Source: a virus
Length of the DNA: 64,000 nucleotides
IMG/VR virus record: IMGVR_UViG_3300045988_131044
Coordinates: 19,100-83,099 of that record
Reading direction: 5' to 3' (one strand)
Shown: positions 8,171 through 64,000 of the stretch, piece by piece
How the letters are laid out: every line of letters starts with the position of its first letter
How positions within the stretch are numbered: position 1 is the stretch's first letter
Translations under genes and position numbers: made by a program
Notes under the pieces: generated by a model
What the model was told of the DNA's origin: nothing
What the model saw: the letters and a program-made list of their open reading frames with translations, nothing else
The model's database searches: none

Positions 8171-8439
8171 TGGAATTAAAAGATTTAGTCAGGATAATGA
8201 CAAAAGAAGAGTTCGAATCAGCAATCAACGAAGATATTAAATTCGTTGAAAGATTTAAGCATTTTTTTAAACATGATGATGTTGCGAGGATAATAGAACA
8301 CGTAAAGTCAGTGTTAGAAGCATCAGTGGACTACTGCTATCCGAATCATCCTGAACCTAAAGCAGAACCTGGAGACATGGGAGAGGTTTCTGATGGATAC
8401 CATACTTTCAATATCCGAAATAACATTAAAACAATATAA
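8170..8439 (+). CDS. hypothetical small protein
   Basis: overlapping start; stop TAA immediately precedes the omegaRNA-like block. Confidence 0.45.
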   Translation: MELKDLVRIMTKEEFESAINEDIKFVERFKHFFKHDDVARIIEHVKSVLEASVDYCYPNHPEPKAEPGDMGEVSDGYHTFNIRNNIKTI

Positions 8440-8690
8440 TTCCATTATAAGGTTTTAATGTACCAGAAATGGTCCGGATATTAGCCTAAGCCTTGAAACG
8501 AAGGCTACGTTATTTGAGAATAGATAGTTACCTACGGATGTTTGTCCAAGTCCGTAGCTCTAAGGCAAGCGATTAAACAGAGATTGTATTCGGGTTTCAG
8601 TGTTGCTTGCGAAAAACCTCTTATAACATTGGCGATGGGTACTAACAGGATGAAATATTCCTGACTTATGTTGAATAAACATTAAAAACG
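8425..8690 (+). ncRNA. IscB-associated structured RNA (omegaRNA scaffold / left end of IS200/605-like element)
   Basis: non-coding block directly 5' of iscB with several hairpins; homologous inverted copy at 30640..30960 with compensatory changes. Confidence 0.6.
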
Positions 8691-30639: not shown

Positions 30640-30960
30640 TATGTTTTAATACATCCCCTCGGAGACCTTCCGGTCTCCGAGGTAGATGTAAATCCCGTTA
30701 GGGATAAGTCAGGATTTCTCCTGTAAGTACCCATCGCCAATGTTATAAGAGGTTTTATATAATGGCAACACTGTTTCGTCAAATACACTACTCCTGTTTA
30801 ATCACCATCCTTAGAGCAAGAAACTTGGATAAACATTCCTTGGTAACTATTTATTCTCAAATAACGTAGCCTCTGTTTCAAGGCTTAGGCTAATAACCCG
30901 ATCTCTGAAAGAGATGTATTAAACTTTTATAATAGAATTATATTGGGTTAATACTATTTG
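30640..30960 (-). ncRNA. orphan omegaRNA-like structured RNA / IscB-element left-end copy without nuclease gene; ends in GC hairpin cctcggagacc-GGAA-ggtctccgagg (30657..30682)
   Basis: ~75% nt identity to 8425..8690 in inverse orientation; two stems differ by compensatory changes. Confidence 0.55.
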
Positions 30961-31142
30961 GGGTTATAACACCGATCATAATGCTTGGTCAGTTCTTCTG
31001 GTTCTAAATCTTGTCCAAAATCCATGTTAAAAATATCGTAATTAGTAAAGCACTTAAAATCACTGTCCCTGCCGGCAGGAAATCTATGAATGCTGCTTTT
31101 GCTTCTTCAATTAGGCCCAAGTGTAACCTTGGGCCATTGTAT

Positions 31143-42936: not shown

Positions 42937-43380
42937 TTAACTCATTTTTACCCATTTGGCATTATCAGGTATTAAATCCTTAAATTCTTCTGGGATTTTC
43001 CCTTGATGCCACCAATCATTGGAAATGATTTTTCTCCCATCATTTGAAATAGCCTCCATCATTCTTCCTCCCATACCCATGAATCTTCGTGTTTTGTTGT
43101 TTGTATTGGGAACAAACGGATTAGCTATCCATGATTCTCCATCTATAATCAACCAATTGGGATTATTCTTATTCTCTTCATATAGTCTGATCCAAAACGC
43201 ACAAGAATAGCAAACTCCATCTCGTTCCATAATAGACCGTATAGGACATTTACAAAAATGTTCTGGATTCATGCTATGTATATTATTTTGCCCCGACCCA
43301 TCTTCGCAGCCGCATTTGGGACATATTTTCTTCTTTTCGCTTTCCATATTGCTTATGCTGTTTTTAAGGTAATAGATCAT
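42937..43380 (-). CDS. Zn-ribbon (CPKCG) protein, paralog of 20752..21240
   Basis: shared motifs with 20752..21240. Confidence 0.55.
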   Translation of the reverse strand: MIYYLKNSISNMESEKKKICPKCGCEDGSGQNNIHSMNPEHFCKCPIRSIMERDGVCYSCAFWIRLYEENKNNPNWLIIDGESWIANPFVPNTNNKTRRFMGMGGRMMEAISNDGRKIISNDWWHQGKIPEEFKDLIPDNAKWVKMS

Positions 43381-59578: not shown

Positions 59579-60388
59579 TTAAATACTTAACTCTTCAATG
59601 GTCAAGCCTTTTTCTTTTGCCCATTTTAACATTGCGCATAATTCTGTTTCTGACTTATATTTCGGATCACGCCACGCCCATCCGAATTTATCCAGGACAT
59701 GATGATATAATTCGTCGGCTTCTGCCGTATGCACGTCATTGAATAAATACTCCGAACCTTCCGGTATAAGCGTTTCTGTTGTTGCGAAATTATGATATTG
59801 TATATAATGGAAGGCTTTCGATACTACATCATACCACGCATCTTCAGCTACGAACCCAAATTCTTTTACAAAAGCCAAAGTTAGATACATATTTAATAGC
59901 GCTGCCGAATCATATCCTGAATTTGGATTCTTTTCTATTATCTCTTTCTCAAACTCCTTTAGATCTTCAGGCCCGAAAAATATGTAACCCTGAACTGATT
60001 TATAATTTACCTCAGCATATTTTTTACACCTATCATCATTGATTATCTTACCAATGTTGGATAACATCATCTGTCGCCATCCATCACGGAACTCCACCTC
60101 TACCTCCATCCAATCAGTACCATAGTTATACTCTTTTGGGTGTCCGACTGATGTCACCTTTATATCTTTTACACCATATTCATAAAGACGTTCTTTAACC
60201 TTGTCTGCCCATTCTCGCACATAGGGTATGAACGCATTACAATAAGAATCAAAATCAAAATCCGACTCCTCTTCATATTCCGGCATCTCACTATACTCAA
60301 GCGAAAAGAAATGACGCGGGTCTGCTATTGTTTCATAAAAACTTACGTTAATGAAACAAAATTCGTTGGTTGTTGTTTTTAATATCAT
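59579..60388 (-). CDS. hypothetical protein (269 aa)
   Basis: ATG ORF. Confidence 0.5.
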   Translation of the reverse strand: MILKTTTNEFCFINVSFYETIADPRHFFSLEYSEMPEYEEESDFDFDSYCNAFIPYVREWADKVKERLYEYGVKDIKVTSVGHPKEYNYGTDWMEVEVEFRDGWRQMMLSNIGKIINDDRCKKYAEVNYKSVQGYIFFGPEDLKEFEKEIIEKNPNSGYDSAALLNMYLTLAFVKEFGFVAEDAWYDVVSKAFHYIQYHNFATTETLIPEGSEYLFNDVHTAEADELYHHVLDKFGWAWRDPKYKSETELCAMLKWAKEKGLTIEELSI

Positions 60389-60639
60389 AACTTTTTGTAT
60401 TTACGTACATTTTTCTTGCCATAGAATCTACACATGGCACGAATCTGACTATAAAATACTTTTGTCCTCCTGGCCTCAAAGTATTTAAACATTTCTTCAT
60501 TCTTTGTTTCCCACACGTAATCCGTTTGAGAACTCATATGATTTTTATCCTTGCGTGAATAATGGTAATATGATACCACAACACGTTTCGCACCATTCTT
60601 TACAGGTACGATATTCACATCTATGTTATTATCTGTCAT
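60385..60639 (-). CDS. hypothetical small protein
   Basis: overlapping stop/start. Confidence 0.4.
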   Translation of the reverse strand: MTDNNIDVNIVPVKNGAKRVVVSYYHYSRKDKNHMSSQTDYVWETKNEEMFKYFEARRTKVFYSQIRAMCRFYGKKNVRKYKKL

Positions 60640-60754
60640 ATTATTATTGTTTCATTATACAAATACAAAGAGCGCATACCTTCACAGGCCGGCGCTCCTT
60701 TCAATAAAAATGAAAAAACTAACATTACATAAACATATTGTTTTCTGCTCTTTA

Positions 60755-60988
60755 TTACAATACTTTTGTTCCGCAATTATTATATCTTCCGTACTCTTTT
60801 TTCGTATCATTCAAGATTTCAAACACCATCTTCTTGTGATCTTTGTTTGGTAACTTGTCTTTAACGGCCGATATCACGCCCGCTATAGACGTAAAACCTG
60901 AATCTGTTATTGAACACAGCAATAATCCCCTTTCGTCGCCGGTGCTTATCGCTGACGCCTTTATAATATCATTCTTATATATTCTCAT
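60755..60988 (-). CDS. hypothetical small protein
   Basis: ATG ORF just 3' of tRNA-like element A. Confidence 0.4.
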   Translation of the reverse strand: MRIYKNDIIKASAISTGDERGLLLCSITDSGFTSIAGVISAVKDKLPNKDHKKMVFEILNDTKKEYGRYNNCGTKVL

Positions 60989-61009
60989 AACTCTTTTATT
61001 TTATTATTT

Positions 61010-61090
61010 GTGAGATGCCCAGAATCGAACCAGGACCGACACATACATACCGGCACGCCGCGTCATCCCCTCTATGATACAGAAATAGGC
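61010..61090 (-). ncRNA. tRNA-like element A (canonical T-arm GGTTCGATTC; full cloverleaf not confirmed by hand)
   Basis: RC of gaatcgaacc at 61022..61031; stem pairs as G-U on minus RNA but C-A mismatch on plus strand; ends atctcaca like element B. Confidence 0.3.
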
Positions 61091-61163
61091 ATGACTATCC
61101 TCACAAACTGACATGCCAAAACCCAAAACTTAATTTGATGAATAAAATAGATTAACAAAAATA

Positions 61164-61478
61164 CTATTCTAATTCTTTTATAATATCTTTCACAATATTC
61201 AGCCTTACCTCCTTCGTTTCTGGACTAAGACAACCAAACCATCCATAAAACGTTCTTGTTTCCTCTGGTTCTGTGGCCATACTTATCTTCTCTTCCAATT
61301 CCGGGAAATATATTCTCACCATTTCGTCTGAACGAAACTCATAGATATTTTTATGTGTTTTGAAATACATAAACACTACATTTCTTAACGCAACACATAT
61401 GTATTCCCCATCCTCTAACCTATCAATCATCTCATATACCTTTTCCCATATGAATAATCGCTCTTCTTTTGTAAACAT
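61164..61478 (-). CDS. hypothetical protein (104 aa)
   Basis: ATG ORF. Confidence 0.45.
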   Translation of the reverse strand: MFTKEERLFIWEKVYEMIDRLEDGEYICVALRNVVFMYFKTHKNIYEFRSDEMVRIYFPELEEKISMATEPEETRTFYGWFGCLSPETKEVRLNIVKDIIKELE

Positions 61479-61492
61479 ATCCTTCTTTATTT

Positions 61493-61834
61493 TTATGGTA
61501 TTATTTGACTGTATGCAGACTTTTCCATGTACACAATATTATGCCCCTGTCCAAATATCTTCTTTGCCACCTCTTTCTTTATCGCACAATATCTCCCTGT
61601 ACGATACGGATTCTTTTGATCTGATCCATCCTCGACTTCGATAATAAAACAGCCTCCGTCATCTATTATCTTTTTGCAATTGTCACATACTCCGCCCGTG
61701 CATATATGATGCGGTGCCTGCCCTTTGATATTATTCCCTAATAAAGCAATGCCCATCTCTTCGCCACATATCATGCAGACTTCTATAGACGGATTCAATC
61801 CGTGTTCTGGATGTAATGTAATACCATCTTTCAT
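61493..61834 (-). CDS. Cys-rich zinc-binding-type small protein
   Basis: GGAGG SD 8 nt before ATG 61834; longer ORF to 61909 runs into tRNA-like element B. Confidence 0.5.
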   Translation of the reverse strand: MKDGITLHPEHGLNPSIEVCMICGEEMGIALLGNNIKGQAPHHICTGGVCDNCKKIIDDGGCFIIEVEDGSDQKNPYRTGRYCAIKKEVAKKIFGQGHNIVYMEKSAYSQIIP

Positions 61835-61862
61835 TTTCTTTCCTCCTTTGTTTTTAATGTTG

Positions 61863-61940
61863 TGTGAGATCGCCGGAATCGAACCGACCTGCTGCACCAT
61901 GAATCCCATAAAGCAAATGCTCCGATCTTCGCAGACGGGA
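61863..61940 (-). ncRNA. tRNA-like element B (T-arm GGTCGG-TTCGATT-CCGGC followed by GATCTCA-C)
   Basis: T-stem pairs with a G-U only on minus strand; acceptor-like 3' strand; 5' half does not give a clean cloverleaf by hand. Confidence 0.3.
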
Positions 61941-61987
61941 GCACTCTGTCTAAAGCATAAGAAAATTAATGAAGAAAATCTTCCTCA

Positions 61988-62068
61988 CTTACGCCATAGC
62001 ATCTAAAATAGCTATCAACACTATTTCTATGACAAGCATAATAGAGAATGTCTTAAATATCTTTTTCA
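61988..62068 (-). CDS. 26-aa hydrophobic peptide MKKIFKTFSIMLVIEIVLIAILDAMA
   Basis: GGAGGAG SD 4 nt before ATG; below ORF-track size cutoff. Confidence 0.3.
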
Positions 62069-62178
62069 TATCTCCTCCTTTTTTTTATCTGTTCTTTTCA
62101 CGTTCCACAATAAACTGTTCCGGCTCTGCTCCGACCTACGCCCTACCTACAACCGCAGGCCTTAGCCCAAGGCGCCGC

Positions 62179-62439
62179 CTACTCCCCCTCTATGGCAGCC
62201 TGTTCGTACCTACAAATCCAATCTCCATCTACACAACTATCACTACGCGATAACAAACATTTATCCTCATAACAATCATAAAAAATACACCTATCACAAC
62301 TGTAATCCTTAACGTCTACACAACTAACTACCTTAGCATATACTATACCATCACTGCCTTTTATTCCTTTCACCCCAAAAATAGAACCTTCTCCCTCCTT
62401 ACTCAAATCTAAGTCAGGCGCAAAATCATATACGTTCAT
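62179..62439 (-). CDS. small Cys-rich protein (86 aa)
   Basis: ATG ORF; last gene before non-coding hub. Confidence 0.4.
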   Translation of the reverse strand: MNVYDFAPDLDLSKEGEGSIFGVKGIKGSDGIVYAKVVSCVDVKDYSCDRCIFYDCYEDKCLLSRSDSCVDGDWICRYEQAAIEGE

Positions 62440-62523
62440 GTTGTTTATGTTTTAATTGTTATACATTCCGCTTGAAAAAAAAATACTCACATAATGCAGT
62501 CTTTAACCCTTACCTACAGAATA

Positions 62524-62779
62524 CTGTTTTAAAAACGCTGTAAGTCTTAATTTTGTTGGAAAATCCTACATTGTGCTGTTTTAAAGCACTGCAATCCTTA
62601 ATTTTGTTGGAAAATCCTACATTGTGCTGTTTTAAAGCACTGCAATCCTTAATTTTGTTGGAAGAGACTACAAAATGCTGTTTTAAAGCTCTGCAATCCT
62701 TAATTTTGTTGGAAGAGACTACAAAATGCTGTTTTAAAGCTCTGATCTATTGAATTTTGTTGGAAGAGAGTGCCCTCCC
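62524..62779 (+). repeat. 5 tandem copies of a 51-bp direct repeat (two subtypes), each containing TAATTTTG; last copy degenerate
   Basis: units 62524, 62576, 62627, 62678, 62729; conserved ctgttttaaagc[at]ctgcaatccttaattttgttgga + variable 15 nt. Confidence 0.8.
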
Positions 62780-62960
62780 CCTCCCTCTCTCCAACTCCCG
62801 CTAATCCCCCGGCTTTCCGCATAGAACCCACGCCCTACCGCCTCACTACCGGCATACGGAGAGCGCTACAAGCTTATACTCTGGCATGAGGTGTGGGGTG
62901 TTTAGGGATAATATCATTCCATAGAGAGAATAGAGACCTTCAGCCCACGCCCTACCGTCT
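62767..62960 (+). other. GC-rich island in AT-rich genome: 40-nt polypyrimidine tract (G-runs on minus strand) and two copies of CCCACGCCCTACCG
   Basis: strong composition shift; motif at 62829 and 62944, related copy at 62127. Confidence 0.5.
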
Positions 62961-63489
62961 GCTCCTCCTATCAAAATAGATATTTAAACCTATAATCAAA
63001 GCCAATAAAGAAAAGCAAAAGACCATTACAATATTATACTGATCCGGTCCGTACTCCAACATAGAACGAATACCAACCGACAGAAAATACAAGTCAGCTA
63101 CTAATAAAAACCACCATATAAAATAAAAAAATACAATAAGTATGTCCGAAAATACGGGTATTATAAAACCTAACTAATTAATAATCAAGCATACCTCATT
63201 TTTGAGAAAAATACAATAAGCTTAATTTTCAATCCATAGAGACGAAAAAGGCGGCATCCGACACCCTATTTTGGGTCAGAAAACCGCCTAAAGTTTCGTT
63301 TTAAACCAATTTTAACGACATGATATAGACAAAATACCGGCATTATATCCAAACTATCATATTTTAGTTTCGTTTTAGACCAATATAGCTCACATCCGCC
63401 GTTCACTCTCAGAATATCCTACCCGTAAATAGAAAGAGTAGGATACAAAAATAGGGCTGCTCCGATATTCGGAACAACCCTACTCCTGT

Positions 63490-63696
63490 TTAAATACTGT
63501 TTATGTTTTCCTTCACGTATGTTCGTGATGTATGAACTTTACGCTTGCATTTGTCCTTTCCTGTATCGGCATGATACGCTTCTTTGAGATCACGATACAA
63601 CATAAATTCACGATACGCTCTTTTCCGCTTTTCTTTAGCTTCTTTCCTGGACAGACCGCGAACGTCTACCATGTGAGATTTAAATTTCCTTTCCAT
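63490..63696 (-). CDS. hypothetical basic small protein
   Basis: ATG ORF. Confidence 0.4.
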   Translation of the reverse strand: MERKFKSHMVDVRGLSRKEAKEKRKRAYREFMLYRDLKEAYHADTGKDKCKRKVHTSRTYVKENINSI

Positions 63697-63718
63697 TTTC
63701 TTTATGCTTTAATTATGA

Positions 63719-63889
63719 TTAACCCCAGCGGTTAAGTGCTTCAATATAGAAACCTTCCGCCTCTTTGTACTCACTTTCGCTTAGTGCTTCAACCGTCTCG
63801 ATATAGTTACGCAATGTTATTTTTACGCAACTGTTTTTAGATTTATTAAACGCTTCAGTTAAAGCGTTGATCATTGCTTTCTTTCCCAT
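63719..63889 (-). CDS. hypothetical small protein (56 aa, below ORF-track cutoff)
   Basis: ATG ORF between element C and 63490..63696. Confidence 0.3.
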   Translation of the reverse strand: MGKKAMINALTEAFNKSKNSCVKITLRNYIETVEALSESEYKEAEGFYIEALNRWG

Positions 63890-63912
63890 GTTATTATATT
63901 GTTTATAATTTA

Positions 63913-63978
63913 GAGGTTGCTCCGGAATCGAACCGGACGCGCATTCTTATCCTATAGAGATTTTATGCTACAACCAAC
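63913..63978 (-). ncRNA. tRNA-like element C (T-arm TCCGG-TTCGATT-CCGGA, 6-bp acceptor-like helix GGTTGT/GCAACC); only ~62 nt between acceptor strands
   Basis: perfect T-arm on minus strand; possibly a minihelix rather than a full tRNA; near window edge. Confidence 0.3.
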
Positions 63979-64000
63979 AGCCCGTAATTAATACGTAGTT

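Follow-up and report, generated by a model that had tools for sequence, protein, structure and literature searches.

In phages of the T7 group, arrays of 7 bp repeats abut the 160 bp terminal repeat at the concatemer junction. The R sites of lambda cosB, the pac hexamers of P1 and pacL/pacR of SPP1 lie ∼50–250 bp from the cut and usually beside the terminase genes. The sopC centromere of F is composed of twelve 43 bp repeats, and sopC-like arrays are known to tolerate changes in copy number. Models for replication primed from an R-loop come from ColE1 RNA II and from mitochondrial conserved sequence block II (CSB II), variable tandem repeats beside control-region origins being a known pattern in mitochondrial DNA; for elements acting as RNA, the RNase III sites of the T7 early transcript provide the comparison. 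Here we describe a 1,050 bp stretch of viral DNA, almost without coding sequence, at positions 62440–63489 of a 64 kb piece of a phage genome (hereafter the window, to which all coordinates refer), in which a hypervariable tandem array, a G-rich purine tract, a GC-rich island and several families of short repeats are gathered close to a predicted genome end.

The window derives from an Epsilon crAss-like phage, and the 1.6 kb around the island match a single phage in GenBank, csAssE-Sib (OR575929, 151,256 bp), from the human gut, which has been placed in Epsilonunovirus (PMC11054128). Epsilon crAss-like phages, all of them uncultured, are abundant in the human gut and make up 13–18% of the crAss-like reads there (PMC7886860). 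As every repeat family described below falls in one 1 kb stretch beside the sole predicted terminus, the stretch is an obvious place to look for the ends, the packaging signals and the origin of such genomes. We tentatively read it as a control region that acts in cis, as DNA, close to the genome end, and that might serve packaging, end processing or the start of replication.

Repeat families beside a predicted genome end

Over 1.6 kb, the locus is 88.5% identical to csAssE-Sib if a 102 nt gap is counted and ∼95% identical otherwise. The first base of OR575929 was set by its authors with PhageTerm (p = 1.5e-22; PMC11054128). By alignment, the last and first bases of that record are equivalent to 63407 and 63408 of the window, respectively, the coding sequence at 83–289 of the record being the window ORF at 63490–63696. 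Given that the record ends map to these positions, the predicted terminus lies ∼450 bp from the GC-rich island and within the same non-coding stretch, which starts ∼80 bp beyond the equivalent of the predicted end; the tandem array is found 640–900 bp from it. According to the annotation of the relative, transcription of a replication module that spans 17.4 kb down to 1 is directed towards the terminus, and small, mostly hypothetical genes followed by further replication genes (151 down to 111 kb) are transcribed away from it. The window genes here are on the minus strand, the ORFs agreeing with a negative GC skew that extends from ∼20 kb to the window end. Read in this direction, the stretch presents two hairpins, the predicted end, an 18-mer pair, a terminator-like hairpin, the repeat TCTCTATGGATTGA, a promoter-like zone, a small gene, a GC-rich spacer with the purine tract, and the array; a leader of ∼70 nt and a gene of 86 aa follow.

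Five repeat families, in one shared orientation, are each unique to this region within the window: a 12-mer (CYACGCCCTACC), the 18-mer pair (TTGGTYTAAAACGAAACT, minus strand, 63292–63309 and 63366–63383), a 14-mer pair (CTTATTGTATTTTT), a further pair (TCTCTATGGAWTGA) and Box 1 of the array. For TCTCTATGGAWTGA there are two matches in 64 kb where 0.07 would be expected, both on the minus strand: TCTCTATGGAATGA at 62914–62927, in the island, and TCTCTATGGATTGA at 63229–63242, directly after the terminator-like hairpin (63248–63267, minus strand). Four of the families were searched for in the whole of csAssE-Sib, where the 12-mer, the 18-mer and CTTATTGTATTTTT were again confined to this region and Box 1 had one extra match, with one mismatch, at 43297–43309. 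Apart from Box 1, the families searched thus occur in a single place of a complete 151 kb genome, as would be expected of a packaging or terminus site.

The 18-mer pair, at 25–115 bp, is the set of repeats nearest to the predicted terminus and a more plausible terminase site than the 12-mer. One locus of our sample (L034) ends at ∼63414, but this gives no separate evidence of a terminus, since the same contig continues in another locus (L183). Term searches of the csAssE-Sib paper (PMC11054128) and of a 2021 survey of crAss-like phages (PMC7886860) returned no passage on the region, and wider literature searches returned nothing on it.

A hypervariable tandem array

Relatives of the locus were collected by two scans of viral contigs, one for CGGTAGGGCGTGGG and the other, independent of any motif, with the 86 aa protein encoded downstream of the array, from which we took the best 80 of 179 stretches encoding a relative. 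The ∼110 loci used from both scans are all close, their identity being 88–97% for the protein and ∼80–97% for the DNA of the locus. The phage collection, searched with nucleotide and protein queries, yielded csAssE-Sib only, and homologues of NrnA led to one more close relative (L204) and to one non-syntenic locus (L203).

The array occupies 62514–62769 on the minus strand and consists of five 51 nt units, each with a Box 1 (CCAACAAAATTMA) and a Box 2 (TTTAAAACAG); Tandem Repeats Finder gave a period of 51, 5.0 copies and 89% matches. It has a GC content of 32%, directly adjoins the purine tract, and was absent from the initial annotation of this DNA, which had instead pointed out the GC-rich island and the 12-mer. 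Box 1 occurs nowhere outside the array in 64 kb. Among the 52 relatives with complete copies, we found 37 distinct arrays, ranging from 144 to 390 nt and from 2 to 10 copies of Box 1, and no other part of the locus is so poorly conserved; in csAssE-Sib it is two 51 nt units shorter than in the window. The cores of Box 1 are spaced by 50–51 nt (58 cases), 21–22 nt (38) or 17–20 nt (10), of which 21–22 and 50–51 nt approximate two and five helical turns. Extra duplications involve units of 17, 21, 22, 23 or 50 nt in differing phases, yet the core CCAACAAAATT is included in nearly every duplicated unit, and most of the short-unit duplications (17–23 nt) begin beside the purine tract. With five copies of Box 1 at a spacing of 51 nt, the array has the at least three direct repeats, the conserved core and the helical phase by which iterons are recognized; it is also a variable-number tandem repeat, the copy number differing among close strains and within one contig.

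Twenty-five of the best 80 related contigs terminate inside the array. In one of them, 154,949 nt long, both ends lie in the array and overlap, carrying three versus two copies that are one 21 nt unit apart. Such contigs are circular assemblies broken at the tandem repeat, and their ends are not physical ends. It follows that any 'terminal repeats' reported for contigs broken here would be assembly artefacts, and copy number is heterogeneous within a single sample. As the array breaks about one third of the sampled related contigs, it matters for judging the completeness and circularity of these genomes; it could also be used as a marker for strain typing.

Two other identities for the array were considered. 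A CRISPR array, or a mimic of its repeats, was rejected because, in place of constant repeats of 28–48 nt and unique spacers of ∼30 nt, there is a 51 nt period with variable parts of ∼14 nt that are duplicated between units, and because relatives amplify sub-units of 17–23 nt; no cas gene was seen in the annotation of csAssE-Sib. Promoters of the Bacteroides type within the repeat units were unconvincing by eye, the plus strand reading TAATTTTG in some units and GAATTTTG in most relatives.

Variation on this scale raises the question of whether array and tract are simply slippage-prone tandem-repeat DNA in a neutral spacer that separates two transcription units, in which the 12-mers arose by chance or gene conversion. 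The 37 versions in 52 genomes would be expected from such DNA, and so would the lack of conservation of two of the three 12-mer copies (B and C, see below) and an island that is no better conserved than its surroundings. On the other hand, Box 1 is kept through the units of the arrays, at least two units always being present, and independent duplications that began in different phases nearly all include it. Neutrality likewise leaves unexplained why four G-runs persist in the purine tract of 48 of 52 relatives despite frequent slippage, and five window-unique repeat families within 1 kb would be surprising in junk DNA. For these reasons we consider a neutral spacer unlikely. If the stretch is instead a control region, a DNA-binding protein of the phage may recognize the phased copies of CCAACAAAATT and act in packaging, end processing or the start of replication.

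A GC-rich island ending in a G-rich purine tract

Taking the 37.2% GC of the whole window as the baseline, the initial annotation was right to single out 62767–62960 as GC-rich (56.2%), and the value rises to 68% within 62770–62810. A second GC-rich patch, with 57% GC, is located at 62090–62180. Such patches are not rare, as there are ∼17 of 80 nt in the window, most of them, judged by eye, apparently coding. On the minus strand, the island forms a non-coding GC-rich spacer of 185 nt in all, which runs from the small gene, through a body (62811–62951) that holds copy B of the 12-mer, to the purine tract (62770–62810) at its end. Per-column conservation of the body among relatives is ∼92–98%, equal to that of the flanking genes.

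The tract reads GTGCCCTCCCCCTCCCTCTCTCCAACTCCCGCTAATCCCCC on the plus strand, including the longest pyrimidine run of the window (20 nt, from 62773), and GGGGGATTAGCGGGAGTTGGAGAGAGGGAGGGGGAGGGCAC on the minus strand. Its G4Hunter score of 1.92, G-rich on the minus strand, is the highest in the 64 kb. The window contains no canonical G-quadruplex motif (four G3+ runs with loops of 1–7 nt); with loops of up to 12 nt, its sole four-run G3+ motif is at 62777–62810 on the minus strand. The strand to which quadruplex potential was attributed thus has the high score but no canonical motif. Among relatives, the tract varies between 33 and 55 nt through slippage of the GGGAGA type, in steps that are not multiples of three, a common variant of 41 nt being GGAGGATTAGCCGGGGTTGGAGAGGGGGAGAGGGAGGGCAC. 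Four G3+ runs are present in 48 of the 52 relatives under the relaxed rule and the canonical motif in 20 of 52, whilst the tract of csAssE-Sib has three G-runs only. Part of the tract, GTTGGAGAGAG, is able to pair with CTCTCTTCCAAC of the first repeat unit. Within the control region that we favour, the tract might adopt a hairpin, triplex or quadruplex at which polymerase stalls; stalling, we propose, would in turn lead to expansion and contraction of the tract and of the first repeat units by slippage.

The order of a promoter-like zone, a tract that is G-rich on the non-template strand and a 32% GC array of phased repeats also invites a more specific proposal, namely a replication origin primed from an R-loop, at which RNA transcribed from the promoter-like zone would persist at the tract as an RNA–DNA hybrid or quadruplex and would prime DNA synthesis, with the AT-rich array as the zone of unwinding and loading. 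Epsilon crAss-like phages have no DNA polymerase of their own (PMC7886860) and must therefore recruit host enzymes, which speaks for such a scheme; a sliding clamp is encoded, according to the annotation of csAssE-Sib. Against it, the GC skew has no inflection here, the genes for helicase, primase and replication factor lie at a distance of 22 kb or more, and no initiator gene is nearby. The window's lack of a canonical quadruplex and the three G-runs of csAssE-Sib are equally unfavourable, and we judge an R-loop origin to be decidedly improbable. An extended form, in which tract and array are the origin of a polymerase-less phage, with the R-loop or quadruplex handing a primer to the host replisome and array copy number tuning origin strength, is more speculative still.

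The 12-mer is not a conserved set of sites

The motif CYACGCCCTACC has exactly three matches on both strands of the 64 kb, even with one mismatch allowed, against a chance expectation of 0.12, and three copies were reached in none of 100 shuffles. A thrice-repeated 12-mer had been reported in the initial annotation, and the repeat is real, with starts at 62136, 62828 and 62945 that differ by 1–9 nt from the coordinates first given. Neither the rest of the window nor that of the 151 kb relative holds the motif at comparable density. All three copies are given here on the plus strand. Copy A (CCACGCCCTACC, 62945–62956) reads GGTAGGGCGTGG on the minus strand, and the TAG within it terminates the small gene. 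Copy B (CCACGCCCTACC, 62828–62839) is inside the island body, and copy C (CTACGCCCTACC, 62136–62147) is in the GC-rich 3′ untranslated region of the 86 aa gene. The copies are 450, 570 and 1,270 bp from the predicted end.

In the motif-independent set, 53 of 55 relatives retain copy A. Copy B is polymorphic, being GGCGGTAGGGCGTGGG in 28 of 53 and of the GGCYGAGAGCGCAGG type or an intermediate in the remainder; both forms can pair with an upstream GCGCU through G-U pairs that are possible on the minus strand only. The form of copy C found in the window, GGTAGGGCGTAGG, is shared by 3 of 79 relatives, the majority having GGTGGAACGTAGG. Copy C corresponds to the loop and 3′ stem, in a rare form, of a hairpin (GGCCUGCG...CGUAGGUC) of which relatives keep the stem and vary the loop. 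This GC-rich hairpin (62100–62180, minus strand) has a 13 nt loop and lies in the gap after the 86 aa gene.

Since copy B is shared by only about half of these relatives and copy C by very few, the 12-mers are not a conserved set of sites, and the rarity of this form of copy C makes the three-copy set peculiar to the strain of the window. We infer that the 12-mer is a short paralogous GC-rich repeat rather than a recognition element, and that its third copy, and often its second, derive from drift or gene conversion. The suggestion that it marks an origin, a pac or cos site or a genome terminus thus holds for the neighbourhood, with a predicted terminus ∼450 bp away, and fails for the 12-mer as the recognition set, which related phages do not keep.

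Coding potential and RNA structure

A protein-coding function of the island was considered and rejected. Its ORFs are short, the tract changes length in non-triplet steps and most relatives carry a 1 nt indel, so that no single frame is maintained. OR575929 has two short genes annotated across island and array; they are likewise unsupported, and our result corrects these doubtful gene calls. ARAGORN found nothing in the region. Rfam gave no match to it at the gathering threshold in a search of the window, and at E ≤ 10 over 60500–64000 gave only a chance tmRNA match elsewhere. From these results, the stretch appears to act as DNA, and not as protein or a known RNA.

A role in RNA of no known family has to be weighed separately. 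The islands at 62767–62951 and 62090–62180 could be structured parts of a leftward polycistronic transcript, providing processing, stability or pausing signals, the purine run among them, between small genes, as the tRNA-like elements described below might do nearby. Both islands are intergenic on the sense strand, as are those three elements in neighbouring gaps; island polymorphisms retain 99% of the predicted pairs by way of G-U pairs available to the sense strand only, and the hairpin at copy C has a kept stem and a varying loop. Folding of the alignment against column-shuffled controls gave z = −1.63 for the sense strand versus +0.9 for the antisense strand. None of the scores is significant, however. 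Single sequences fold no better than shuffled ones (z of −0.2 for the minus and −1.3 for the plus strand). The consensus fold of 74 distinct sequences, from highly similar relatives, has two to three pairs changed on both sides, and its covariation values were reached in 16–17 of 500 shuffles, with unconstrained alignments often attaining the same level. Sequence identity is very high, yet the structure conservation index is 0.62, no Rfam family matches, and the hypervariable array would be left without an explanation. There is, then, a weak hint of sense-strand RNA structure in the island, and we regard an RNA-level element as somewhat unlikely.

Three tRNA-like elements that were missed by both ARAGORN and Rfam are present on the minus strand at ∼61009–61104, ∼61864–61988 and ∼63914–63976. 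They share the T-arm motif GGTTCGATTC[CT]GG, which has three matches in 64 kb where 0.1 would be expected. In each, an acceptor-like stem of 6–7 bp closes the T-arm; one or two additional hairpins are present, a D-arm is lacking, and two of the three have in common the stem GUGAGGA...UCUCACA. Each stops ∼20–25 nt before the ATG of the next gene. The genome of csAssE-Sib encodes a Ro60-related protein, a CCA-adding enzyme, a polynucleotide kinase and NrnA; in view of these genes, the elements could be Y-RNA-like or signals for RNase P or Z. Elsewhere in the window, there are two full-length matches to the HEARO RNA family, a guide-RNA class of IscB/TnpB-type nucleases, at 8436–8646 (plus strand, 105 bits) and 30723–30967 (minus strand, 95 bits), compared with a gathering threshold of 83. 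Two TnpB-family transposase genes have been reported in the phage group (PMC11054128).

Flanking genes and further features

Upstream of the predicted end, two terminator-like hairpins (63440–63485, minus strand) follow the preceding gene. The promoter-like zone (63127–63220, minus strand) combines the CTTATTGTATTTTT pair (63127–63140 and 63207–63220) with a TTGATT-N17-TATAAT sequence running from 63188 to 63160. Next comes a small gene for a hydrophobic peptide ending in MLEYGPDQYNIVMVFCFSLLALIIGLNIYFDRRSRR* (62952–63092, minus strand). Its start is uncertain, the product being 36–46 aa long and the ATG at 63062 a likely start, and OR575929 annotates it with a longer, probably wrong, start. 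Across 54 relatives, the gene has 12, 4 and 24 variable columns at codon positions 1, 2 and 3; this third-position bias, together with a conserved length, indicates that it is genuine. Neither Pfam nor PHROG gave a match to it.

Downstream of the array, the first gene (62179–62439, minus strand) encodes the cysteine-rich protein of 86 aa, which has no relatives known outside the phage group. In the close relative found through NrnA (L204:13814-14080, on a 129,699 nt ENA contig), no gene is called in its place, and inspection of the sequence by eye shows frame-shifting indels, so that the phage may be able to do without this gene. For the nine small genes closest to the stretch, counting both its sides, there was no convincing Pfam match and one match to an unannotated PHROG. 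Neither these comparisons nor the annotation of csAssE-Sib place an initiator, ParA or ParB gene next to the array. The genes with ATG at 62069 and 61834, which flank the finding, have strong AAAGGAGG sites. A Shine–Dalgarno core precedes 11 of the 83 window genes (ORFs of ≥ 80 aa), which fits a Bacteroidetes-type host, and an action of the purine tract on ribosomes was dropped because so few genes have this core.

Two further origins for the locus were rejected. None of 185,579 species-representative genomes contains an exact copy of a 25-mer from the island, contrary to a prophage or host-derived copy; a diversity-generating retroelement (DGR) template or a homing element was set aside since the DGR of the group is elsewhere, at 45.7–47.8 kb of the record. 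The locus is a mosaic, in that a 269 aa protein encoded a short way downstream (59579–60388, minus strand) is 79.5% identical to its counterpart in csAssE-Sib compared with ∼95% DNA identity in the non-coding stretch, which is among the better-conserved pieces between the two genomes.

A possible control region near the genome end

Several observations weigh against a cis-acting control region as set out above. The putative small and large terminase subunit genes are at 20.1–23.2 kb of the csAssE-Sib record, ∼20 kb from the terminus rather than adjacent to it, and island and array, at 450–900 bp from the predicted end, are beyond the reach of typical cos or pac elements. The terminus itself is a PhageTerm prediction for a relative, and none of the best 80 related contigs ends there. 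As regards replication, the replication factor, primase and DnaB-like genes are at 124–129 kb of the record, at least 22 kb away, and the extremes of the cumulative GC skew fall at 17.7 and 110.7 kb, where coding switches strand, with no turning point at the terminal region, a test that is confounded by the direction of transcription. The weak, strand-specific signal of the alignment fold on the sense strand leans towards a role in RNA. The extreme variation in copy number could equally mean that the array is dispensable. Lastly, the locus is so alike among the relatives found (∼90–97%) that little can be concluded on selection from the conservation of the island, and no homologous region was found outside the genus, the non-syntenic locus L203 having no tandem repeat that scores ≥ 60. 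A control region nevertheless remains our tentative preference, given the clustering of repeats beside the predicted end.

Comparison with known systems

We class the locus with the repeat-bearing control regions, terminal or intergenic, of phages. Its nearest counterpart is that of csAssE-Sib, which is ∼95% identical, has copies A and B of the 12-mer and ends its record at the equivalent of 63407; the differences are the two 51 nt units that it lacks, a copy C that reads GGTGGAACGTAGG, and three G-runs in the tract.

The repeat arrays of T7-group phages resemble the array described here in being non-coding, beside a defined end and composed of short direct repeats in the same orientation ahead of the first promoters and genes. 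In contrast to those of T7, the units here are 17–51 nt long, lie 640–900 bp from the predicted end and vary between strains. With CSB II and the ColE1 RNA II region, the locus shares a tract of G-runs on the non-template strand that follows a promoter-like zone and sits beside variable repeats in a non-coding region, although the G-runs here are only partly conserved. Iterons and sopC offer another parallel, in tandem repeats of one orientation with a conserved core and spacings of near-whole helical turns (21–22 and 50–51 nt); unlike them, the array has no adjacent initiator, ParA or ParB gene and no skew signal, and its copy number differs between strains that are 90–97% identical over the rest of the locus. 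Finally, as in terminase recognition regions, short repeated motifs are clustered once per genome near a cut site, here the predicted end. The 12-mer departs from that pattern, being 450–1,270 bp from the predicted end, with the terminase genes 20 kb off and the set unconserved, whereas the 18-mer pair at 63292–63383 is a better fit to the terminase-region model.

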